Source: an uncultured Verrucomicrobiae bacterium
Lineage (GTDB): Bacteria; Verrucomicrobiota; Verrucomicrobiia; Chthoniobacterales; UBA10450
NCBI GenBank assembly: GCA_963815455.1
Contig: CAWFGO010000003.1
Location: forward strand, 480,001-544,000
Reading direction: 5' to 3'
DNA length: 64,000 nucleotides
Positions 1,790-54,515 of the stretch are shown here, one piece after another. The notes under the pieces were generated by a model. The model made no database searches, was not told the origin of the DNA, and worked only from the letters and a program-made list of their open reading frames with translations. Numbering within the stretch: the first letter of the stretch is position 1; the number at the start of each line of letters is the position of its first letter. The translations under genes were made by a program, and so were the position numbers.

Positions 1790-3631
1790 TCACCGCACTG
1801 CTTTACTGCGGATTGGCTGCCTGGACCGGTAGGTCTCAATATTCTTTTCCAAGTCAGCAGCCAGACCAGAGTCGCCAGTAGCAGTCGCCGTTTCCCAAGC
1901 TCTTTCCGCGGCGCGGACGGCCTCGGGAAATTGGCCAGTCTCAGCATAAGCCGCTGCCAGGGTGCGTAAGACAATCGGATTATCACGCTTCGAATCGCGA
2001 ACCACACTGCCAGCGAGTCCGACGGCCCTTTCGCCATCGCGCAGCGCGGGGTCGGGCGAAGTGGCTAATACCCACGCGAGATTGCAGCGCACGTTCAAGT
2101 TGCTGGGCGAGTTTCTCAGGCTGTTTTCGAAATGTGCTACCGCGTCCCGCTCATTGCCCAACTGCAGGTAAGCGAGCCCAAGGTTATTTTCCGCATTGGC
2201 GTCATCGGGCCGAATCCGAAGCGCTTGCTGACAATGCGTGATCGCGTCGTTCAACCGGCCCCGCCGCATCAGCAAATCAGCCAGGCTTGAGTGGGCAAAA
2301 TAGTTGTCCCGAGTGACCGATATCGCGTGAGTCCAAAGAACTTCGCTGTCGCGCCAGTAGGCCGCTTGGCCGCGCGCCGTCCACGCCAGTGCGGCGATAA
2401 CCAGACCCGCAGCCAAGCCGATGATCCCCCTGCGAGCAACCCAGTGCGCCGACAGGTGCGCCACTCCCCACGCAATGATCAGGTAGAGACCAATCTGGGG
2501 CAGGTAAGTATAGCGATCGGCATGTCCTTGTAGTCCGACTTGAACAATCCCAATAACCGGCAGCAACATCGACAAGTACCAGAACCAGCCAACGGCGAAA
2601 TACGGCCGGCGCTCACGAAGCCAAAATGCTGCCGTTGTCATCGCGATCAGAAAAACAACAGCGACCACGACTTGCCAGGCAATGCTTGGGCCGCCATATG
2701 GGTAGAAAACCGCGAGCCGATCGGGCCATACCATCTGCCAGACATAAATGGCATAGGTGATGATCGCGTTGGCGATCCGCGAGGACATCGGCAACCGCTG
2801 CATCGATGCCGCATTCTGCGCAATGATCGTTGCCACAGACAAAGCCGCCGACAGTGTAAAGAGCGGAATTTTTTCCAGGATCGCCCGGCGCATTTCACGC
2901 CGCCCAGAAATTCTTTTGAGCGGCCAGTAATCGAGCAGAAGCAACACAAACGGAACAGTTACCAACATCGGCTTGGACATCAGCCCGCAGGCAAACAAGA
3001 TCGACATCGCCACGTAGCGGGCGAACGTTCGCTTGCGCGTATAGCGCACATACGCGCCAAGTGTGAGCATGAATAACACGGCGCTAAGCACGTCCTTGCG
3101 TTCCGCAATCCAGGCGACCGATTCCACGCGCAGGGGGTGAACCGTAAAGACCGCCGCGACAAACGCGCTACGCCCAAGCAGTCCCGTCATGTCGCGGAGC
3201 ACGAGAAAGAGCAAAACCACCGCGATGGCGTGGAGCACAACGTTGGTGAAATGATGACCGCCAGGATTGAGGCCAAACAATTGGCAATCGAGCATATGAG
3301 AAATCGTCGTGAGCGGATGCCAGTTTCCGCCGACGACGTGCGTAAATGCCCAAACAATTCCGTGAATGGTTAGCCCTCTGATGATCTCGGGATTCTCATA
3401 GATGTAGTGAGGATCGTCGAAATCAACGAACGGAAATCGAATCGTCTGACCGAACACAAACCAGGTGATGGCGACCAGAAGAAGGCTGATGACGACGGTC
3501 GTTCCAAGCGAAGTCGAGGAATCCCGATGCAAAATCGACCGGCTGCTCCGCGGAATCCTTTCACTCCGAAAGGTTTCGGAGCTCAGGATGACTGGGCGAC
3601 GAGAGCGCCCCCTATTCGTTCGATTCCGCAT
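1790..3631 (-). CDS. TMTC-like GT-C membrane glycosyltransferase with C-terminal TPRs (copy 1)
   Basis: Multi-TM domain with FDD..Y loop, WHPLT, HPLRVESVAWIAERKDVL, ADRYTYLP, followed by TPR repeats. Confidence 0.8.
   Translation of the reverse strand: MRNRTNRGRSRRPVILSSETFRSERIPRSSRSILHRDSSTSLGTTVVISLLLVAITWFVFGQTIRFPFVDFDDPHYIYENPEIIRGLTIHGIVWAFTHVVGGNWHPLTTISHMLDCQLFGLNPGGHHFTNVVLHAIAVVLLFLVLRDMTGLLGRSAFVAAVFTVHPLRVESVAWIAERKDVLSAVLFMLTLGAYVRYTRKRTFARYVAMSILFACGLMSKPMLVTVPFVLLLLDYWPLKRISGRREMRRAILEKIPLFTLSAALSVATIIAQNAASMQRLPMSSRIANAIITYAIYVWQMVWPDRLAVFYPYGGPSIAWQVVVAVVFLIAMTTAAFWLRERRPYFAVGWFWYLSMLLPVIGIVQVGLQGHADRYTYLPQIGLYLIIAWGVAHLSAHWVARRGIIGLAAGLVIAALAWTARGQAAYWRDSEVLWTHAISVTRDNYFAHSSLADLLMRRGRLNDAITHCQQALRIRPDDANAENNLGLAYLQLGNERDAVAHFENSLRNSPSNLNVRCNLAWVLATSPDPALRDGERAVGLAGSVVRDSKRDNPIVLRTLAAAYAETGQFPEAVRAAERAWETATATGDSGLAADLEKNIETYRSRQPIRSKAVR
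3498..3592. repeat. GTCAT...ATGAC palindromic (CGTC-type, REP/MITE-like) repeat, read in frame within the 1790-3631 CDS
   Basis: gtcgttccaagcgaagtcgaggaatccc...gctcaggatgac matches copies at 12606, 14363 and 25558. Confidence 0.8.
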
Positions 3632-11398: not shown

Positions 11399-11465
11399 TG
11401 TAGCGGCGCTCTCCGAGCGTCGCGCTATTCGATCCAATTTGCGACGGTCGGAGACCGCCGCTACA
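11399..11465. repeat. GTAG REP doublet (REPIN-like), RAYT-cognate family
   Basis: TGTAGCGGCGCTCTCCGAGCGTCGC ... GCGACGGTCGGAGACCGCCGCTACA. Confidence 0.9.
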
Positions 11466-11472
11466 GAGGAAG

Positions 11473-12594
11473 ATGTTTAGCGCCGGAATCGTTGGTTTGC
11501 CCAATGTCGGCAAGTCCACCTTGTTCAATGCCGTTACTCGCACGCATAAAGCGCCGGCGGAGAACTATCCCTTTTGCACGATTGAGCCCAATGTCGGCGT
11601 AGTTGTCGTGCCCGACCCGCGACTGGCGAAGCTCGGCGAGATGTCGCACTCGCAAAAAATTGTGCCGACGGCGATCGAGTTTGTCGATATTGCCGGTTTG
11701 GTCAAAGGCGCGAGTGCCGGTGAAGGACTCGGCAACCAATTCCTCAGCCACATTCGCGAAGTGGACGCGATCGTGCAGGTGGTGCGCTGCTTTGAAAGCG
11801 CGGATATTCATCATGTCGCCGGCACAATCGATCCGGTCCGCGACATCGAGGTGATCAACACCGAGCTGGTGCTGGCCGATTTGGCCGCGCTTCAAAAGCG
11901 GCAGCATCGAGTGCAAAAGGAAGTTCGAGCCGGCGAGAAGGGAGCGAAAATCGAGAGCGCGATCGTCGAGAAACTGTTGCCGCATCTGGACGCAGGAAAG
12001 CCGGCAATCACGCTCGATCTTTCGCCTGAAGAAAAAATTGTGGCGCGCGAATTCTTCCTGCTGACCTCAAAACCGACACTCTTCGCCTGCAACGTTGCAG
12101 AAGCAGATCTCGCTGTAGCCGCGGGCGCCGACCGCGGCAGCGCTGCGCAACATCTCGCCGCGGTGCAGGATTACGCGCGACATCATTTTGGAACTGAGGC
12201 TGTGGTGATCAGCGCCCAAATTGAGAGCGAACTGGTCGATCTCGGTGAAGAGGAAGCGCGCGAATATTTGCGCGGGCTCGGGGTCGAGGACAGCGGCGTC
12301 AACGCACTGATCCGGGCGGTCTATCACCTGCTTGGATTACGCACCTATCTTACGACCGGTGAAAAGGAAACGCGGGCCTGGACGATTCACGCGGGCGACA
12401 AGGCGCCAGCCGCGGCGGGGGTGATCCATTCCGATTTCGAACGCGGGTTCATCGCCGCGGAAACGATCCACTACGACGAGCTGGTCGCGTTGGGTTCGTT
12501 CGCTAAGGCCCGCGACGCCGGCAAACTTCGCATCGAAGGCAAGGATTACGAAGTCCGCGACGGCGACGTGATCACGTTCCGGTTTAACGTCTAA
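11473..12594 (+). CDS. ychF: Redox-regulated ATPase YchF
   Basis: [45 protein letters not shown]. Confidence 0.96.
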
Positions 12595-19155: not shown

Positions 19156-21444
19156 ATGCCGTCCCGAAACCGAATCCTGCTGATTGCGTTGTCGATCCTG
19201 CTGGTCGGGGCGACCGCGGTTTGGTTTACGCCATTTATTGTGTCGCGCGGATTACGCCTCTGGATTTCCTGGAAAGCGCGCCAGCAGCATCTTGTCGTCA
19301 AGATCGACAAAATCGACGCGCCGCTTTTGCGCCCGGTGGTCATGCGCGGGATTCATATCGCAAGCGCTCCTGGAAATTCAGTCAACCTCAACGTTGACGC
19401 GACTCAGGCCACATTCGATTTCAACCTTGCCGCCGTCATTTTGCGACGTGGTCGTTCGATTCGCTCGCTTTCGGTTGACGATTTTCACGTCGAGACCCAC
19501 CGCCTTCGGCCCGGGGCGTTCCTGTCCGAATCCGGCTGGATCGCGATGCAAAAATTGTTCCCGCTCAAATTCAACTTCTCCAAGTTCGATCTGCGCATGG
19601 AAGACGGGGCGACCGTAATTCTGCTTCGCAACGCGTCGATGTCGGGGAGCGAAATCGAAGCGGGCCAGTTTAGCGCCGGCGAGGTCACGATCGCGTCACC
19701 TTTATTTCGCCAGACTTTCGGCCAGCTCCGGGGCTCGACCAATTGGCAAAACGATCATTTAACCGTGGCCGGCCTGAGCCTTGCCCGGGGCCTCGATCTT
19801 CAGTGGATGACCTTTGATTTATCCCAGGTTGGAAGGCAACGCCTCGCGCTCGATTTCGATGTCGATGCTTTCGGGGGAAAAATTCGCGCCAGTATTTCCA
19901 ACGAATGGCTTCCCGGCAGTTCTCTCTGGAATGTGGTCGGCTCGGGAAACGATATTTCACTGGCGCAAACTTCGGAAGCGCTCGGGTTCACCGACCGGAT
20001 GGGTGGACTTCTTCACGCCTGCAAATTTACTTTCCGCGGCGATCCACACGATCCGTTGCAGGCGGCCGCATCGCTTTGGACCGAGCTGACCGGATTGAGT
20101 TGGCGCGATCGCGCAGCCGAAGTGATCATGCTCGGCGTCTCGCTCTACAATCGGCAGATCGACATCCAGGAACTTTACGTCAAGCAAAGCAAGAACCAGC
20201 TGACCCTGAAAGGCCAGGGCGCGTTCCCGGGGAAATCGTCGGACTGGCTCAGCCCGGATTTCCAAGGCGATATTTCCGCGTCGATCAACCAGCTCGGCGA
20301 TTTCGCCGCCCTGTTCGGCGCGGATCCGCGCGATTTCGCCGGAAAAATTGCGATCGACGGGACAATGAACGCTCGCGACCGAAAGATCGGCGGGCACCTT
20401 ACCTTCGATGGCAAGTCGCTCACGCTTTTCAAAACCGGAATCAATGCCTTAAGCGCGAAGCTCAGTCTCAAAGCGAGCGAATTGCAGATCGAACAACTGG
20501 AGCTGAAGCGCAAAAACGATTCGATGACCGCCCAGGGCAAGATCGACATGTCGCATGAGCATAAATACTCGGGCACGCTGAACGCCGCGGTCGACGACCT
20601 GGCCGACTATTTGTCGATCATCCGCGGCCCGACTGAAGACAACGTGAAGCCGACCCCGGCTAGCGTTCAAATAAACATCGAGGCCAGCCGATGGGACGCG
20701 AACGGGTCGATCAAGTTACCGGGTTCGAGCCCATTCGATTTCACGGCCAATTTCTTCCTGCCCATCGGAGCGGATTGGAGCGCTCTTCGGGCGGCGCCGG
20801 TCAACATTACTCTCGATTTTCCCTCGGTCTTTCTTGGAAGCACGCCACAATTTTTTCATCCGAGGATCTTCCGCGACGGCATTCTTAGCGGAAACCTCTC
20901 CATTGCCGGTTCCCTGCAACACCCCCGCATCACAGGCGACCTGCAGTTGTTAAACAGCAAGCTGGAGAACGCATCCTTTAATTTCACCGAAGCCAGCAGT
21001 CGGATTACCTTTAGCGGAGATCGCGCCTCGATAGATTTTTTTAATGCCGCCACCAAGGATGTGGATCTCTCGCTTCGCGGAGAAATCGATCTGCGCGACG
21101 CAAACGATCTCGGCATCAAGATAATTGCCGGAACACCGATCTTCGATCTCACGCCGCGGGCAATTGATTGCGTGAGCAAGATCGAGATCGATTCTGTGGC
21201 CGCAACGCTCGCGCCCGCTGTTACGGAACTGGAAATTCGCGGCGCGTTTCGATCTGCCTGGAAGATGAGCCTGAAAGAACGCGCAAGCACTCAATCCCCC
21301 GGCGGTCCGAGCTTGGACGAAACTGCTCGAAAATTTCCGATCTGTCTGGGCACGGCTACGGAAGGAAAAACGCTGGTGCTCGGCGGCCCATCGCGGCCGG
21401 AAAAACCTGCCGTTCGCCCACAAAAACGAAAGAAGCGGCGCTAA
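19156..21444 (+). CDS. AsmA/TamB-like membrane-anchored periplasmic protein
   Basis: Single N-terminal TM followed by a long run of amphipathic beta-strand sequence. Confidence 0.6.
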   Translation: MPSRNRILLIALSILLVGATAVWFTPFIVSRGLRLWISWKARQQHLVVKIDKIDAPLLRPVVMRGIHIASAPGNSVNLNVDATQATFDFNLAAVILRRGRSIRSLSVDDFHVETHRLRPGAFLSESGWIAMQKLFPLKFNFSKFDLRMEDGATVILLRNASMSGSEIEAGQFSAGEVTIASPLFRQTFGQLRGSTNWQNDHLTVAGLSLARGLDLQWMTFDLSQVGRQRLALDFDVDAFGGKIRASISNEWLPGSSLWNVVGSGNDISLAQTSEALGFTDRMGGLLHACKFTFRGDPHDPLQAAASLWTELTGLSWRDRAAEVIMLGVSLYNRQIDIQELYVKQSKNQLTLKGQGAFPGKSSDWLSPDFQGDISASINQLGDFAALFGADPRDFAGKIAIDGTMNARDRKIGGHLTFDGKSLTLFKTGINALSAKLSLKASELQIEQLELKRKNDSMTAQGKIDMSHEHKYSGTLNAAVDDLADYLSIIRGPTEDNVKPTPASVQINIEASRWDANGSIKLPGSSPFDFTANFFLPIGADWSALRAAPVNITLDFPSVFLGSTPQFFHPRIFRDGILSGNLSIAGSLQHPRITGDLQLLNSKLENASFNFTEASSRITFSGDRASIDFFNAATKDVDLSLRGEIDLRDANDLGIKIIAGTPIFDLTPRAIDCVSKIEIDSVAATLAPAVTELEIRGAFRSAWKMSLKERASTQSPGGPSLDETARKFPICLGTATEGKTLVLGGPSRPEKPAVRPQKRKKRR

Positions 21445-24400
21445 GCCCGCCGCTCAGATTTCGTTGCCACCAGCCAGCGGGCAAGCTTTTCTTCCAGATC
21501 GCTGGTAAGGTTCACGTGAAACTCCGCGCCGGCATCGAGAAGCAGCGAACCGCTGTTGCCGCGATCGAACAGGAATCGAACCGGACTGCTTCCAGGAGAG
21601 CTGGCCAGGATCTTGCGCACTTCGCGCAATTCTTCGCTCGTTGCCGCCGAAGAAAATTGCAACAGGATCGGCGGCTCTTCTTTTGTTCCGTTTGTCGATC
21701 CTTCCCTCCCCTCGCCGTTCGTCTTTTCGGTAGTTAAAACCTTGACCTTTTGCGCTACTGCGCGCGATCGATCGTCGCGGCTATCGACGCTGGCCTGGAC
21801 CGCAATCACCCGGCCGGGCACGAGGAGGTCGGCTACTTTCGAATAAGTGTCGTCCCACAGGAAAACTTCAATCGATCCGGTCAGATCTTCCAGCGCGAGG
21901 ATGGCGTACGGCTTCCCATCGGATCGCCGGAATTTCTTTTCGACTTGCGTGATTGCGCCCGCGATTCGGCAGACGGCCCGATCGTCTAATTCGGCTAACG
22001 AGGCGATCGATTGATATTTCTTTTCCGCCAAAAGATCGGCAAAAGCCTCCAGCGGATGCCCGCTGACGTAAAAACCGAGCAATTCCTTCTCGAACGAAAG
22101 TTTCTCGTGCTCGCTCCATGCCACCACCGTTCTCGGCTTTGTCGATGTTGTCGAGGCGGTCAGCTCCTCAAACAACGAGCCTTGTCCCGCGGCGCGATCG
22201 CGCTGCGCCGCGGCCGAGGCCGCCAGCGCTTCTTCGATACAGGCGTGAAGCTCCGCCCGGTCGCGCCCAAGAAAATCGAACGCGCCGGCTTTGACCAAAC
22301 TCTCAAGCATTTTCCGATTGGCCCCGCGCGTTCCCAGCCGTCCGCAAAAATCTTCCAGCGAGGTAAATTCGCCGCCTTGCTCGCGTTCCTGGATCGTCAC
22401 GTCCATGGCTGCTTCACCGACGTTCTTGATCGCCGCCAGCCCGTAACGGATTGCGTTCTTCTGTAGCGGCGCTCTCTGAGCGTCACCTTCTTCGGTTCGG
22501 CGGTCAGAGACCGCCGCTACAATGCTTTCGGGACTAAACTTTAACCCGCTCCGGTTCACGTCTGGCGCGAGAATCGGAATGCCCATTCGTTTACATTCGC
22601 CGACGAAGACCGAGATTTTTTCGGTATTGCTAATCTCGTTGCTCAGCAATCCGGCCATGAATTCCACCGGATAATGCGCTTTTAGATATGCGGTCTGATA
22701 ACTGATCAGTCCGTAAGCGGCGCTGTGGCTCTTGTTGAATCCGTAACCGGCAAATTTTTCCAGCAAATCGAAAATCGCGTTCGCTTTTTTCTCCGGGATC
22801 TTGTTCGTGCGCGCGCAACCCTCGATAAAATTCGTGCGCTCCTTGGCCATTTTCTCCTTGTCCTTCTTCCCCATGGCGCGCCGCAGCAAATCGCCCTGGG
22901 CCAGCGAATAGCCGGCCAACTTGCTGGCCGCGGCCATCACCTGTTCCTGGTAAATCATAACGCCATAAGTGTCGGCGCAGATTTCCTCCAGCAGCGGATG
23001 CTCGTACCGAATCTTGGTTAGTCCCTTTTTGCGTTTGATGTAATCGCCGATGAGATCCATCGGGCCGGGCCGATAGAGTGCGATCAACGCGATGATGTCG
23101 TCGATCTTTTGCACGTCGAATTGCTTGGCCGTGCTGGTCATGCCGCCTGATTCCATTTGGAACAGCCCGATGGTTTCTCCGCGGTTGTAGAGACCGAACG
23201 CGGCTTCATCATCGAGCGGAATATTTTTCAGCGAAAATCCCGGCTCGCGTTTCCGGATCAGCTTCAGCGTGTCCTCGATCACCGTCAGGGTCTTGAGCCC
23301 GAGGAAATCCATCTTCAGCAGACCAAGATCGTTCAGCGGCCCCATCGCGTACTGACTGATGATGTCGTTTCCCTTCACGTCGCGGCAGAGCGGGATGTAT
23401 TCGGACAAATCGCGATCGGCGATGACGACGCCGGCGGCGTGCACGCCGGCATTGCGCGAGATGCCTTCCAAAATCTTGCCGTACTCGAAGACCTGCCGCG
23501 TTTCTTTTTCGGTCGCGATGGCCCGTTTCAGCTCGGGATTCTTTTCGACGGCAGATTCGAGAGTGATGTTCAGTTCGTTCGGGATCATCTTGGCGATGCG
23601 GTCCGCCGCGGCGTAGGGAAGCCCGATCACGCGACCCACATCGCGCACCACGCTCTTCGCTTTCAGTTTTCCGAAGGTGATGATCTGCGCGACCCGGCGC
23701 TCGCCATATTTCTGCCGAACGTACTCGAGCACTTCACCCCGACGCGCTTCGCAAAAATCGACATCGATATCCGGCGGCGAAATCCGGTCCGGATTCAAGA
23801 ACCGCTCAAAAATCAGACCGATACTGCAACGGATCGATGTCCGTAATTCCGAGCACGTAGGCCACCAGTGATCCGGCCGCCGATCCGCGCCCCGGCCCGA
23901 CCGGGATCCCGCGTTCCTTGGCGAAGTGCGATAAAATCCCAGACGATCAGGATGTAGCTGACGAAGCCGGTTTTCTCGAGAATGCCCAGCTCATAATCGA
24001 GACGCTGTTGAAGTTGATTGTCGATCTTCGCTCGCTCGCCGTAGCGCTCCTCCAAACCCCTGGCGCAAAGAACGCGCAGATATTTCTCGCGTTCAACGCC
24101 TTCCGGCACGGGATATTCCGGGTATTTCGACTTACCGAGCTCGATCTCCAGGTTGCAGCGCTCGGCGATCGCCAGCGTGTTGGCGATCGCCTCCGGGAAA
24201 TCCTTGAATATCTCCCGCATCTCTTCCGGCGACTTGAAATAAAGTTCCGGCAGATAATGCATTCGCTGCTCGTCCTGCACCATTTTCCCGGTGCCGATGC
24301 AAAGCATCACATCATGCGCGTCATGATCGCTCCGCCGCAGAAAATGCACGTCGTTCGCGGCAACAAGCCCGACACCCAGGTCTTTCGCCATTTTCGGCAG

Positions 24401-24976
24401 GACGGCATTGCACCAGCGCTGTTCCTCCATGCCGTGATCGTGCATTTCGATGAAGAAATTTTCCGCGCCGAGAATGTCGCGATACTCGGCGGCGGCCTGC
24501 GTCGCGCTGTCGATCTTGTTCGATTGAATGGCCGAGTTCATTTCGCTGGCCAGACAACCGCTCAGCCCGATAAGGCCCTGCGCGTGTGAAGCGAGAAGTT
24601 CCTTGTCGATCCGCGGCCGGTAATGAAATCCGTCGAGATGCGCGGTCGAAATCAGTTTTACCAGATTGCGATAGCCCGTTTCATCCTGGGCCAGCAGCGT
24701 AAAATGATAGGCCGACTCGCGCATCGAGCTGGGCCGGTCCTTGTGCGAACGCGGCGCGATGTAAGCCTCGCAGCCGATGATCGGTTTTATCCCGGCCCGT
24801 TTTGCCTCCTGATAAAATTCGATCGCGCCAAAAAGATTGCCGTGATCGGTCATCGCTACCGCCGGCATCTTGAATTCTTTCGCTTTTTTCATCAGCTCCC
24901 GCATCCGAATCGCCCCGTCGAGGAGGGAGTATTCGGTATGGAGGTGGAGATGAACGAAGGAATCGCGGGGCATCAT
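21441..24976 (-). CDS. dnaE: DNA polymerase III alpha subunit; two +1 indels near 23930 and 23820
   Basis: [18 protein letters not shown] domain; [14 protein letters not shown] in an intermediate frame; [24 protein letters not shown]-terminal OB fold. Confidence 0.95.
22462..22521. repeat. 60-bp GTAG REP doublet in frame inside dnaE
   Basis: TGTAGCGGCGCTCTCTGAGCGTC...CGGCGGTCAGAGACCGCCGCTACA; encodes [20 protein letters not shown]. Confidence 0.9.
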
Positions 24977-27109: not shown

Positions 27110-27835
27110 TTACCCGCGCCGATATCGCCGCATCAACTTGAAAAACCGCAGCGTGTCGCGCATGGGATGGATGCTGCTCACTTCGTCGCAGTAAACAGTC
27201 GTGATTGGGACGGAGTCGATTCGGAAACCTTTGCGGCTCGCTTTGATCAACATCTCGGTTTCGTAATCGAACCGGTCGGCGCCTTCGAGCATCTCCGGGA
27301 TCACGTCGCGATGCAGCATCCGAAATCCGCATTGCGTGTCGGGAATGGTTTGACCACACACCCGGCTGATCTTGTTGCTCATGTAACGATTCACAAGTCG
27401 CCGAACCAGCGGCATGCGCGAAAGATCGTTCATTCGATTGCCGACAAATAACTTCGCGTCCTTTGCCGAAGCGGCGCTCAGGAATCGATCGATTTCTTCC
27501 GGGCGATGCTGGGCGTCGGCGTCCAGGATCATCACCCAGGATACTTGTCGATCCTGTCCGCCGTCGGACGGACTCGCCGGGGCGAGCCAATGCCGCAGCC
27601 CGGTTCGAATCGCTTCGCCTTTGCCGCGATTTTGCGGATGGGTGATGACTTCCGCCCCGGCGATGCGAGCTTCGGCAGCCGTCGCATCGCTGGAACCATC
27701 GTCGACCACCAGAACATGATCGAGCTTGCCTCGCGTCCGCCGGACAACGTCGCCAATATGTTTCTCTTCGTTGAAAGCAGGAATGACCGCCGCGACCGAC
27801 TGTCGCTCCTGCGCGCGCGCTCCGGCCGTCTCCAT
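27110..27835 (-). CDS. GT2 glycosyltransferase (DPM1-like)
   Basis: IPAFNEE, VDDGSSD, NRGKGEA, LDADAQH, DTQCGFR. Confidence 0.88.
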   Translation of the reverse strand: METAGARAQERQSVAAVIPAFNEEKHIGDVVRRTRGKLDHVLVVDDGSSDATAAEARIAGAEVITHPQNRGKGEAIRTGLRHWLAPASPSDGGQDRQVSWVMILDADAQHRPEEIDRFLSAASAKDAKLFVGNRMNDLSRMPLVRRLVNRYMSNKISRVCGQTIPDTQCGFRMLHRDVIPEMLEGADRFDYETEMLIKASRKGFRIDSVPITTVYCDEVSSIHPMRDTLRFFKLMRRYRRG

Positions 27836-30810: not shown

Positions 30811-32409
30811 CTAGGCCTTCTGGCCTTGCGCACCTGGATAGTACGATTGCACAACCAATTCGCTCAAGAACTTATCGGGGGCATCAACCGCCCCGGCATT
30901 TAGCACAAATTTTCCAAGGCCCGTGTTCTTCTGGATCAGGCCCAGCCCAAACTGATATTCCTTAAACAAGTGTCCGCAAAGTTCCGCCATGGTCATACGC
31001 TCTGCTTGAGCGCGCTCGACTAAACGCCGGATTGCCGCGTCGTCGAACACTATTTCGACGCCGTGTTGCTTGGTAAACTGATCGGCATACTGCCGTGCGC
31101 TTGCTTCCAGCGCCTGCGCTTCCTGCTTGTGCCCCTCGGCCATCAGCCGATCCAGCACCCGCCTCGGTTCCCGAACCGTCTCGGCTGTAACCCGCAACTG
31201 GCTCAAGCCGGACCCGGCCAGATGATATTTATAATCGCGGAACAATTTCTCGAACACGGTCAGCAAACCGCGCGCGCCGGTCTTTTCCTTGCCCGCAGCG
31301 GCAGCCAGCAACAAGAGCGCTTCATCCTCGAAGCTGATGTCGATCCCGTAAGCGCGAAAAGCGCGCTCGTATTGTCGAAGCAAGCTGCCTTCGGAAAATC
31401 TCATGATCTTAAAGAGATCGTCGGCATCGAGGTCCTCGCACACCACCCGCACCGGCAACCGGCCGATAAACTCCGGCTCGAACCCGTACTCGACAAAATC
31501 CTGCGTAGTCACGTGCTGGAACAGCTCGTTGTCCATCACATGGACCGGCGAAGCGCTGAACCCGATCTGCCCCTGCCGGACGCGCCGGGCCACTTGTTCT
31601 TTCAATTTCTCGAACGCGCCGCTAACCACGAAGAGAATATGCCGGGTATTGATCGTTTCCCGTTTCGACTTGCCGCGGCGTTGAAACTCGAACGCCGCCT
31701 GCAACTGGGCCTGGAGATCGTTCATGCTTCGCACCGGCACTTCCGTCTCTTCCATTAACTTGAGCAACGTGGTCTGCACCCCTCGTCCGCTCACGTCGCG
31801 ACCGGACAAATTGCTGGCCGACGCAATCTTATCGACCTCGTCGATGTAAATGATCCCGAATTGCGCCAGGTCCACGTCGCCGTCCGCTTTGTGGACCAGT
31901 TCGCGGACCAGATCTTCCACGTCACCGCCCACATAGCCGGTCTCGCTGAACTTCGTCGCATCCGCTTTCACGAACGGCACCTTGATCAGCTCGGCGATAT
32001 GCTTGATCAGATACGTTTTGCCGACACCGGTGGGCCCGACCAAAATCACATTCTGTTTCGCGTATTCGGTTTTTTCCGCCAGAGCCGGGTCCTCCTTCTC
32101 GAGCCGGCGCAGATATTTCGCGTGGTTGTAATGATCGCAAACGGCGATCGAGAGCACCTTTTTCGCTTCCTCCTGTTTGATCACAAACCGGTCGAGATGC
32201 GCCTTGATGTCGCGCGGCAGAAAATTGAACTCGAAGTCCTCGTGCTCGGTCGCGGCCTTTTCCGGCTTCTCCTCCTCGGTCGCCGCAGCCGGCTCGGGCT
32301 GCATAAAAGTCTGGACCGAAACGCGATCGCCGAAGTTCTGTTTCATGAACTCCGAGATCTTGGACTTCAATTCTTCCGGTGAAGGGAAAGGTGGCGGGGT
32401 CGGTTCCAT
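30811..32409 (-). CDS. ClpX-like AAA+ ATPase without N-terminal zinc finger
   Basis: [44 protein letters not shown] loop, TGARGL. Confidence 0.85.
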
Positions 32410-41429: not shown

Positions 41430-41455
41430 TGTAGCGGCGCTTGTATCAAGCGCCG
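41430..41455 (+). repeat. Single GTAG REP
   Basis: TGTAG-CGGCGCTTG-TAT-CAAGCGCCG. Confidence 0.75.
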
Positions 41456-41494
41456 AAGCTAAATAAATAGGCGATTGGCCCACGCGCCTCTACA

Positions 41495-46941: not shown

Positions 46942-47061
46942 GGATATACGTTAGCCTGCGAGCAGCAGAGAAGTCGATGTCGATCTTGGCGCGGGAGCGC
47001 ACGCTTCCAGCGTGCCGCGGCGACGAGGTCGCTCCCCAACGCCGTCGCTCGTATGACGCCG

Positions 47062-47988
47062 CTACAGATGATTCAGCGCGTCGGCAAAATCCTTCGGCAA
47101 AGGCGCTTCGAAACTTTTCCATTCACCGGCGCGGGGATGATTAAACCCAAGCTTCCAGGCATGGAGCATCTGGCGGGGATAATTCGTGGTCAGTTTCGCT
47201 GCGTAAACTTTGTCGCCCAGGACCGGATGACCCAGATGATGAAGATGGACCCGGATTTGATGGGTGCGGCCGCTGTGTAACCGGCATTCGATCAGGCTTC
47301 CGTTCTCGCCGGCCCGAATCACTCGATACTCGGTTTTCGCGGCGCGCCCGCGCGACGAAGCCACCGACATTCTTTGTCGATGCACTGGGTGACGGCCGAT
47401 CTTCTCTTCAATCATGCCCGTGCTCTGTTTCAATTTTCCGGCGACGAGCGCGAGATAAATCTTTTCGACTGTGCGCGCGGCAAATTGTTCCGACAATCCG
47501 CGGTGGGCTTCGTCGTTCTTCGCGACGACGAGGCAACCGCTCGTGTCCTTATCGAGTCGATGCACGATACCGGGACGTTCCTTGCCGCCGATTCCAGAGA
47601 GCTTCGGACAATGATAAAGGAGCGCGTTCACCAGTGTGTGCTCGCGGTGCCCCGCCCCGGGATGAACGACCAGACCGGCGGGCTTGTTGATCACGATCAG
47701 GTCGTCGTCTTCGAACAGAACATCGAGCGGAATCGGCTCCGGTTGATTGTCGATCTTCTCCAGAGGCGGCTCGATAAGATCGACATGATCGCCGGTGCGG
47801 ACCGATTCGCTCGGCCGGGCTGGTACGCCATTGAGCGTTACAGATTTGTCGCGGATCAATTGCTGGATTCGCGAGCGCGAATAGGCGGTAAGCTCTTTCG
47901 CCAGAAAACGATCAAGCCGAAGACGAGCGTCTTGTTTCGTTACGACTAGCTCAATTCGTGTCGGTTTGGCGCTGGAGAGTGGGCTCAT
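47062..47988 (-). CDS. rluD: RluA-family pseudouridine synthase (RluD-like)
   Basis: S4 domain RLDRFL, NKPAGLVVHP, HRLDKDTSG, GRTHQIRVH, LHA. Confidence 0.9.
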   Translation of the reverse strand: MSPLSSAKPTRIELVVTKQDARLRLDRFLAKELTAYSRSRIQQLIRDKSVTLNGVPARPSESVRTGDHVDLIEPPLEKIDNQPEPIPLDVLFEDDDLIVINKPAGLVVHPGAGHREHTLVNALLYHCPKLSGIGGKERPGIVHRLDKDTSGCLVVAKNDEAHRGLSEQFAARTVEKIYLALVAGKLKQSTGMIEEKIGRHPVHRQRMSVASSRGRAAKTEYRVIRAGENGSLIECRLHSGRTHQIRVHLHHLGHPVLGDKVYAAKLTTNYPRQMLHAWKLGFNHPRAGEWKSFEAPLPKDFADALNHL

Positions 47989-53854: not shown

Positions 53855-53942
53855 TGTAGCGGCGGTCTCCGACCGTCGCACTTTGGATTGCCCGCGCCCG
53901 CGCCCAGAGAAAATAGTGCGACAGTCGGAGACTGCCGCTACA
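53855..53942. repeat. 88-bp GTAG REP doublet (left flank of RAYT)
   Basis: TGTAGCGGCGGTCTCCGACCGTCGC...GCGACAGTCGGAGACTGCCGCTACA. Confidence 0.95.
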
Positions 53943-53950
53943 AGTGGAGG

Positions 53951-54421
53951 ATGGTTGAACGCCTGAGGCGCCTCGAATGGACGTTTGAGCGCGCGCCAAT
54001 TTATTTTATAACCGCTTGCATACATAAAAGGCGGCATTTGCTGGCAAATGATGCGGCTCATAACGTGTTCCAACGGTTTTGTGAATCCGCACCCGATCAC
54101 GGCGCCTGGGTCGGCGCATACGTCTTAATGCCGGATCACTTTCATCTCTTCGTTGGATTGGACCACGAGCGGCTCGCCTTATCAGCGTGGATGAACTCTT
54201 TGAAAGGCATCGTCTCCGCACATTTTCGAGAAGCTGCTGTCGGCCGGCCCTATTGGCAGAAGGGATTCTTCGATCACGTCCTGCGAAGCGGAGAATCCTA
54301 TTCCGAAAAATGGCACTACGTTTGCGAAAATCCGGTCCGGGCGGGTTTGGTGTCGCGGTGGGAAGAGTGGCCCTACGCGGGAGAAATTTGCGATCTCGAA
54401 TATCGACGCGACCGGATCTGA
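53951..54421 (+). mobile_element. REP-associated tyrosine transposase (RAYT, HUH Y1 family)
   Basis: YFITAC, AYVLMPDHFHL (HUH), WQKGFFDHVLR, YVCENPVRAGL, WPY; flanked by REP doublets. Confidence 0.93.
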
Positions 54422-54427
54422 CTTCGC

Positions 54428-54515
54428 TGTAGCGGCAGTCTCCGACCGTCGCACTTTGGATTGCCCGCGCCCGCACCCAGAGAAAATAGTGCGACAGTCG
54501 GAGACTGCCGCTACA
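54428..54515. repeat. 88-bp GTAG REP doublet (right flank of RAYT)
   Basis: Direct repeat of 53855-53942 with 2 differences. Confidence 0.95.

Follow-up and report, generated by a model that had tools for sequence, protein, structure and literature searches.

The turn of DnaE in which this bacterium carries a REP doublet is, as the comparison of dnaE loci indicates, a slot found across the family and reused by many repeat families, and is not the work of one RAYT. We consider it likely that RAYTs fill, overwrite and lose repeats in fixed slots of core proteins, and that selection would keep those alleles that are free of stops and in frame. The single insertion in dnaE is of an already published kind. 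What is new, in all probability, is the set of revolving slots throughout the family, for which comparative support is good and for which we infer a RAYT mechanism. Features of the window, meaning the whole stretch of 64,000 nucleotides that was analysed, are given in Table 1.

Table 1. Positions of the dnaE element, its gene, the RAYT and the repeats in the window
Feature	Position	Strand	Remark
dnaE, replicative DNA polymerase III alpha	21441..24973	-	split by two single-base insertions in the assembly
two extra bases in dnaE	about 23822 and 23926-7	-	likely errors of long-read assembly
REP doublet, 60 bp, REPIN-like, "type A"	22462..22521	-	in frame in dnaE
REP arm 1	22501..22521	-	T-GTAG, then 8-bp perfect stem and 3-nt loop
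REP arm 2 (inverted)	22462..22482	+	20 of 21 nt identical to the arm at 11399
replaced stretch	22458..22525	-	68 bases where close relatives have 14 (empty 6-residue turn); run X2, similar in X3
RAYT	53951..54421	+	156 aa from ATG after GGAGG (start inferred); HFH motif and catalytic-type Tyr
type A doublet, 88 bp	53855..53942		upstream of RAYT
type A doublet, 88 bp	54428..54515		downstream of RAYT
type A doublet, 67 bp	11399..11465		intergenic, immediately upstream of ychF
type B REP arm	12111..12138	+	in frame in ychF, second recurrently filled slot
other repeat family	27545..27586	-	in frame in glycosyltransferase gene

The preliminary description of this DNA had reported an inverted REP pair of 60 bp read in frame within dnaE, and this was confirmed. 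The doublet lies in the minus-strand frame, in the HHH_6 domain (Pfam), and folds with a z of -6.4 to -7.3 that none of 200 shuffles equalled. It was also right that the pair belongs to the family of the RAYT-flanking REPs and of the doublet at 11399, since arm 1 matches the REP at 53855 at 20 of 21 nt and arm 2 is as close to the other. The stem of arm 1 extends 3 nt further into the spacer, and 6 of the 8 stem pairs of arm 2 are intact. Matches to the seed with at most one mismatch number 16 in the window against 5.3 expected, a count reached by none of 100 shuffles. Two inverted REPs with a variable spacer form a hairpin, each REP consists of a GTAG tag and a short palindrome, type A is present in many copies (85 arms and 24 doublets in the genome under strict patterns), and doublets of its own type flank the RAYT on both sides, all as in a REPIN. 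The one departure is from the description of REPINs as extragenic (10.1101/2021.07.10.451892), as this copy is coding, an exception that is accepted (PMC3733652). Only 5 of 60 type A loci in the source genome are in open frames, and the remaining loci lie outside them. Doublets of 59-62 bp are a genome-wide subclass (6 of 24). No match to Rfam was found in 22300-22700 at E up to 1, and the reading as an intron or structured RNA fails.

Against NF047646, whose cut-off is 80, the RAYT reaches 102.4 bits, and it also matches PF01797; its Y1 fold, HUH motif (HFH), tyrosine and score above the family cut-off are those of a TnpA-REP. The two bases before GTAG in the 85 type A arms are C in 71% and T in 98%, which fits the C|T cleavage reported for TnpA-REP (PMC8266576). 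This strong bias is confined to positions -2 and -1, with no conserved long tail upstream of the type A REP, so that such a tail does not account for the 4 bases on each side of the dnaE doublet. By analogy, the RAYT would cleave and move type A REPs.

A comparison with close relatives shows what happened at the site. In contigs with an empty allele (91-94% identical to the window; runs X2 and X3 of one study) the ancestral turn of 6 residues is present, and in the source genome it has been replaced and not merely interrupted. The element had been said to add 20 residues, and a gap of about that size was expected on alignment with orthologues. The insertion and the gap are both there, but 14 ancestral bases gave way to 68 and the net gain is 18 residues. 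For the same reason element length modulo 3 is not a valid test of coding insertion, because target bases are replaced; the test had been proposed, and the 24 type A doublets split 6/9/9 with no bias. In the source DnaE loop an Ile precedes the Val of the inserted peptide. A classical MITE was considered and rejected, as the empty alleles reveal replacement of target bases without a target-site duplication.

The insertion site corresponds to residues 882-885 of a DnaE of 1220 residues (PDB 2hpi, 3e0d), between two matched stretches. When the loop was mapped on a predicted structure, as had been suggested, AlphaFold (42-sequence alignment) gave strands at 422-427 and 446-451 joined by an 18-residue loop (428-445) at pLDDT below 50. 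The site is thus predicted to be a floppy turn of a surface beta-hairpin and the inserted peptide a disordered loop with little sequence-specific function. The reading frame suggests that this peptide is made as part of DnaE.

To place this allele among its relatives we used dnaE loci from the family and its outgroups. DnaE was matched in 249 of 261 genomes, and the best 150 of 252 matches, scored against a filled query, were used; 170 loci were fetched and 166 parsed, of which 153 belong to the family (including one unpublished genome, G015, on which no conclusion rests) and 13 to outgroups. Among the 153 best-scoring family loci the turn is filled in 115, empty in 28 and short in 10, an occupancy of 75% that sampling of best scorers with a filled query may inflate. 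An empty loop, seen in 28 genomes of 12 genera, measures 20 residues if counted from PD up to the Ile of IRYGL, and its consensus is PExHDGKMA. All 13 parsed outgroups have 18-21 residues over the same span, and of four unparsed outgroup loci that were viewed, three are short. In the fourth (G057, L154, of an outgroup family) the loop at this turn is longer by about 14 residues. Among phylum genomes outside the family, none of the 131 matched has this region longer by more than 12 residues, and 18 gave no match at the threshold.

The filled slots hold different repeats. Palindrome families assigned by eye account for 106 loci (A 16, B 43, C 29, D 4, E 5 and F 9) with 9 others, where A and B are related and B includes a mis-anchored locus (G258) and one with a single shortened arm (G241). 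On a tree of dnaE without the loop, slot states need at least 58 changes compared with a mean of 78.8 and a least value of 71 in 200 label shuffles, so that kinship is still visible in the slot types. Type A alone takes 15 changes for 16 tips. Primary gains number 31, 22 or 15 when branches under 0, 0.9 or 0.97 support are collapsed, on the assumption that the conserved empty loop cannot be regained. Even between close relatives the content turns over, with the slot type differing in 23 of 51 pairs at 90% nucleotide identity or more. The idea that repeats put peptides into core proteins finds support in the many repeats that lie in frame, but its attribution to a single RAYT does not, given the many repeat families at this one site.

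That the segment is real is supported by contigs from elsewhere. A pattern search for the right junction, which selects type A inserts and so speaks for reality and not for frequency, returned 19 independent metagenome contigs, all of them DnaE with an in-frame type A insert of 37-40 residues; mis-assembly of the segment was not borne out by this shared junction. The exact left junction of the source genome had no match in metagenome contigs, and the repeat contig search gave no contig bridging the source doublet by 31 letters on both sides. Type A is present in 75 of 80 genomes, and the five genomes without it carry no type A insert, whereas an origin independent of the REP would have left the segment in REP-free orthologues.

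Similar slots occur in other proteins, where they were scored at sites occupied in the source genome. The UvrB slot is filled in 23 of 29 genomes by assorted repeat families, two slots in TsaD are filled in 6 and 13 of 31 (at least 8 residues over the shortest), the YchF slot in 10 of 26 parsed (of 30), and the LeuRS slot in 3 of 21 family rows, among which the unpublished G015, G008 and G003 are all empty. In the source genome (G000) UvrB is at contig C1 219948-222248 (L187), with an occupancy as hot as that of the DnaE slot, and TsaD at contig C2 100521-101753 (L178), slot 2 of which mostly holds a GTCATCC-type repeat across genomes. In ychF the single type B arm replaces native residues and leaves protein length unchanged; type B predominates among the inserts that relatives have here, which hints at a target preference. 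The source LeuRS (L172, C1 928735-931629) departs strongly from its relatives along some 250 residues in the editing region and may be another subtype or a garbled frame.

We also surveyed repeats genome-wide. After repeat communities 0 and 6 (350 loci) had been removed as coding k-mers before all counts, the source genome has 954 repeat loci, which fall into 14 clusters. At 115 of these loci the flanks look coding on one strand, and the frame is kept in 81 of the 115 where one third is expected (p 5e-16). At 72 of the 954 the frame is open across the repeat with coding-like flanks, although several, such as a stretch of ribosomal protein S3, seem to be native. When 20 repeat-bearing ORFs were scanned with NCBIfam, 15 were above the cut-off. 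These 15 are PheT, LeuS, IleS, AlaS, ArgS, Mfd, DnaE2 and MetH as well as TsaD, GcvT, QueG, PurL, pyruvate dehydrogenase E2, UvrB and LysA.

There are 16 Y1 transposase matches in the source genome, about half of which adjoin a repeat family (by repeat clusters). Types A and B each have a separate cognate RAYT gene there, as do several others; none was found in this genome for types C, D, E and F. Four of the Y1 matches (C2:124634, C3:170839, C5:91225 and C1:1471019) lie in or close to the repeat-bearing AlaRS and MetH loci, in open frames 922-1507 codons long, and are possible RAYT-domain fusions or core-gene insertions. The commonest repeat of the genome is a class without GTAG that has GTCATCC...GGATGAC ends, occurs in the window at 3507, 10382, 12605, 14392, 25558 and 28769, and also fills the DnaE slot of another genome (G093); no transposase flanked by it was identified in the source genome. 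A related GTAG doublet of 65 bp (41430-41494) and a lone arm (47057-47066) in the window are both apparently intergenic. Apart from the repeats, the window encodes at 30811-32409 a ClpX-like AAA ATPase (532 aa) whose C-terminal extension is long and in which a zinc-finger N-terminus is not evident.

The content of the slot tends to reflect the repeats of the genome. Type C as a genome-wide repeat is found in 27 of 27 carriers tested, in 26 of 47 other family genomes and in 0 of 5 outgroups. Carriers of a type A insert have a median of 34.5 type A copies versus 13.5 and 17 (sister test p 0.025, with related genomes included), and genomes with 85-98 copies can keep an empty DnaE loop; the link between carrying the insert and a high copy number is weak. 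In all scored alleles of the GTAG types A and B the repeat starts at a codon boundary. In the GTGG type C, 21 of 28 alleles (first-arm matches) are in the phase that in a GTAG repeat would read TAG.

Once in place, the inserts change. Amino acids change faster in inserts than in the core (pN 0.123 versus 0.028 in 13 pairs). The insert pN/pS is 0.53 and not 1, and the insert pS of 0.23 is below the core pS of 0.35, from which it follows that the inserts either depart from plain neutrality or arose after the splits. One allele (G086) has a B doublet ahead of a leftover A arm, another (G011) has a leftover C arm, and a third (G097) has a scar of 7 bases where its sister (G101) is filled. These alleles show signs of overwriting and collapse.

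From these patterns and the biochemistry of TnpA-REP, the following course of events may be proposed. Close to the GTAG hairpin a RAYT would cut DNA in single-stranded form at C|T or C|A, and it would join the doublet into the target, replacing a few target bases. Purifying selection would remove insertions that break the frame, introduce a stop or hit anything but a tolerant loop, and because other hits are removed in this way, the few tolerant loops would be struck again and again. To judge from the composite alleles, an occupied slot may itself be a RAYT substrate that is overwritten by another family or collapsed to a short scar. Against this explanation count the loss of ancestral residues at every primary gain, which matches no known insertion mechanism, the fact that no cognate RAYT was found in the source genome for types C to F, the weak link between a type A insert and copy number, the insert pN/pS and pS values, and the broken frame upstream in this assembly.

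A bolder form of this explanation is that coexisting RAYTs treat loops of essential proteins (DnaE, UvrB, TsaD, YchF and tRNA ligases) as a rewritable niche, the hairpin at the DnaE turn being actively kept by targeting or selection. The turn would then serve RAYTs in more than one phylum as a landing pad and couple their activity to replication genes. We regard this as doubtful. Positive selection might also keep the slot filled because any REP hairpin in dnaE mRNA or DNA, and no particular peptide, tunes expression or ties the RAYT to replication genes. The high occupancy of the best-scoring loci is in line with this, as are genera that are filled throughout or nearly so (g10 53/53, g8 13/15), the recurrence of replication and repair genes in published lists (PMC3733652) and occupation of the homologous turn in a Rickettsiaceae dnaE. 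In the contig concerned, which ends upstream, the peptide listed for R. conorii dnaE stands directly before a motif homologous to IRYGLAAIK. However, the 28 empty genomes are spread over 12 genera and some are rich in REPs, slots are also present in tRNA ligases, TsaD, YchF, MetH and PurL, and degenerate and scar alleles persist, all of which makes such selection an unlikely account.

Two further explanations dispense with repeated insertion or with the RAYT. If there had been few insertions, homologous recombination of a dnaE segment could have spread filled and empty alleles among species, and the left junctions of slot inserts do cluster within 2-6 nt while distant type A alleles (the 19 contigs, G009 and G024) are alike in length and register. 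By contrast, the synonymous distance of the flanks at 20 codons in pairs across genera is 0.49-0.53 for the same type versus 0.49 for different types. Flanks of the same type are thus no closer, which speaks against lateral spread, although synonymous sites are near saturation between genera and very short recombination tracts may escape notice. The genome-wide standing of the 59-62 bp subclass and the agreement between the type carried and the repeats of its own genome also weigh against it, and we consider spread of this kind quite improbable. Host recombination or replication slippage at hairpins, swapping slot repeats without RAYT catalysis, would explain why target bases are replaced, unlike in plain Y1 insertion, and the scar in G097 fits a deletion between two TA dinucleotides at the base of the hairpin. 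But the empty loop offers no homology for a first entry, and the CT bias at type A arms and the REPs flanking an intact RAYT point the other way, so that there is little to commend it.

The preliminary description had treated dnaE as one ORF and overlooked two frameshifts in the assembly upstream of the element, which break the frame of a gene that has all of its PHP, polymerase, finger, HhH and OB domains. Both extra bases are absent from related contigs in 4 of 4 runs and from a congeneric genome (G001), dN/dS is about 0.05 downstream of the frameshifts, and the only other DnaE of the source genome is the error-prone DnaE2, with no further replicative DnaE. For these reasons the frameshifts are probably assembly errors. 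Among 12 loci of the source genome compared for frameshifts dnaE was the sole clear case, a number from which a rate is not derivable. Although the frameshifts could suggest that the source dnaE is a pseudogene or the segment an artefact whose peptide is never made, this is hardly credible given the same evidence, the 19 contigs, and type A inserts in intact dnaE frames of 1179-1195 residues (G009, G024 and G138).

We return to the reading in which RAYTs rewrite fixed slots under a filter for frame and stops, and to what it would mean. One reason why it has been hard to work out how RAYTs move REPINs in vivo is that extragenic sites anchor poorly. At the coding slots there are empty, filled, overwritten and scar alleles, dozens of them independent and pinned by conserved codons, which makes it possible to measure the rules at the junctions, the rates of overwriting and how strong the frame filter is. 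The RAYT, the doublet and the empty loop are an exact substrate pair for work in vitro. In a family of more than 260 genomes, mobile DNA may be steadily supplying essential proteins with loop variants, and the DnaE turn appears to be an insertion-tolerant site used in two phyla. Slot loops are best masked in phylogenies.

As a comparison, in-frame intragenic GTAG REP dimers of 20-30 aa were described by Di Nocera et al. (2013; PMC3733652), and the novelty first claimed for coding REPs was accordingly overstated. In that paper the dimers are most numerous in Opitutus terrae, of the same superphylum (70 table rows), occur in dnaE2, uvrA, tRNA ligases and many replication and repair genes, and are explained by flexible loops; the GTAG-17 peptides of O. 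terrae resemble type B of the source family. With recB of two Xanthomonas as the exception, genes of the same category are reported there to be hit at sites that differ. We found no paper on turnover of several REP families at one coding site, or on REPs in Chthoniobacterales, in a search that most subscription papers lie outside.

The dnaE element shares with REPIN-RAYT systems the inverted doublet, the variable spacer and a cognate RAYT flanked by REP (PMC3116915; 10.1101/2021.07.10.451892). Arm 1, with its GTAG, perfect 8-bp stem and 3-nt loop, has the architecture of the group 3 REP of PMC8266576, and the CT before the arm is as for the TnpA-REP of that paper. Excisions are described by Bertels and Rainey (PMC3116915). 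Unlike REPINs that Bertels and Rainey describe as almost exclusively extragenic (10.1101/2021.07.10.451892), the repeats here include the 72 loci in open frames, and there are many RAYT-repeat pairs per genome. Repeat-ORF fusions are reviewed in PMC3184786. The Rickettsia palindromic elements of Ogata (2000), as PMC3733652 and PMC3184786 cite them, are palindromes translated inside conserved proteins. The R. conorii dnaE element is listed as a CGTC REP (CGTC-4), a class for which PMC3733652 reports no dedicated transposase; the tag here is GTAG and the peptide differs. By analogy the dnaE element would work like a Rickettsia palindromic element, yet its tag and peptide set it apart from that class.

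The closest parallel to the revolving slots is in the REPORTH preprint (10.1101/2024.10.14.618302), where P. chlororaphis has 20 conserved spaces, 13 of which hold different REPIN types. There too one fixed position carries different types between genomes and overwriting is proposed. The case in P. chlororaphis is extragenic and within one species, whereas the slots here lie in essential coding sequence across about 30 genera and pass a filter for frame and stops. Compared with the genome-by-genome account of PMC3733652, the data here concern one site followed through 153 genomes, with at least six repeat families and with empty, filled, composite and scar alleles.
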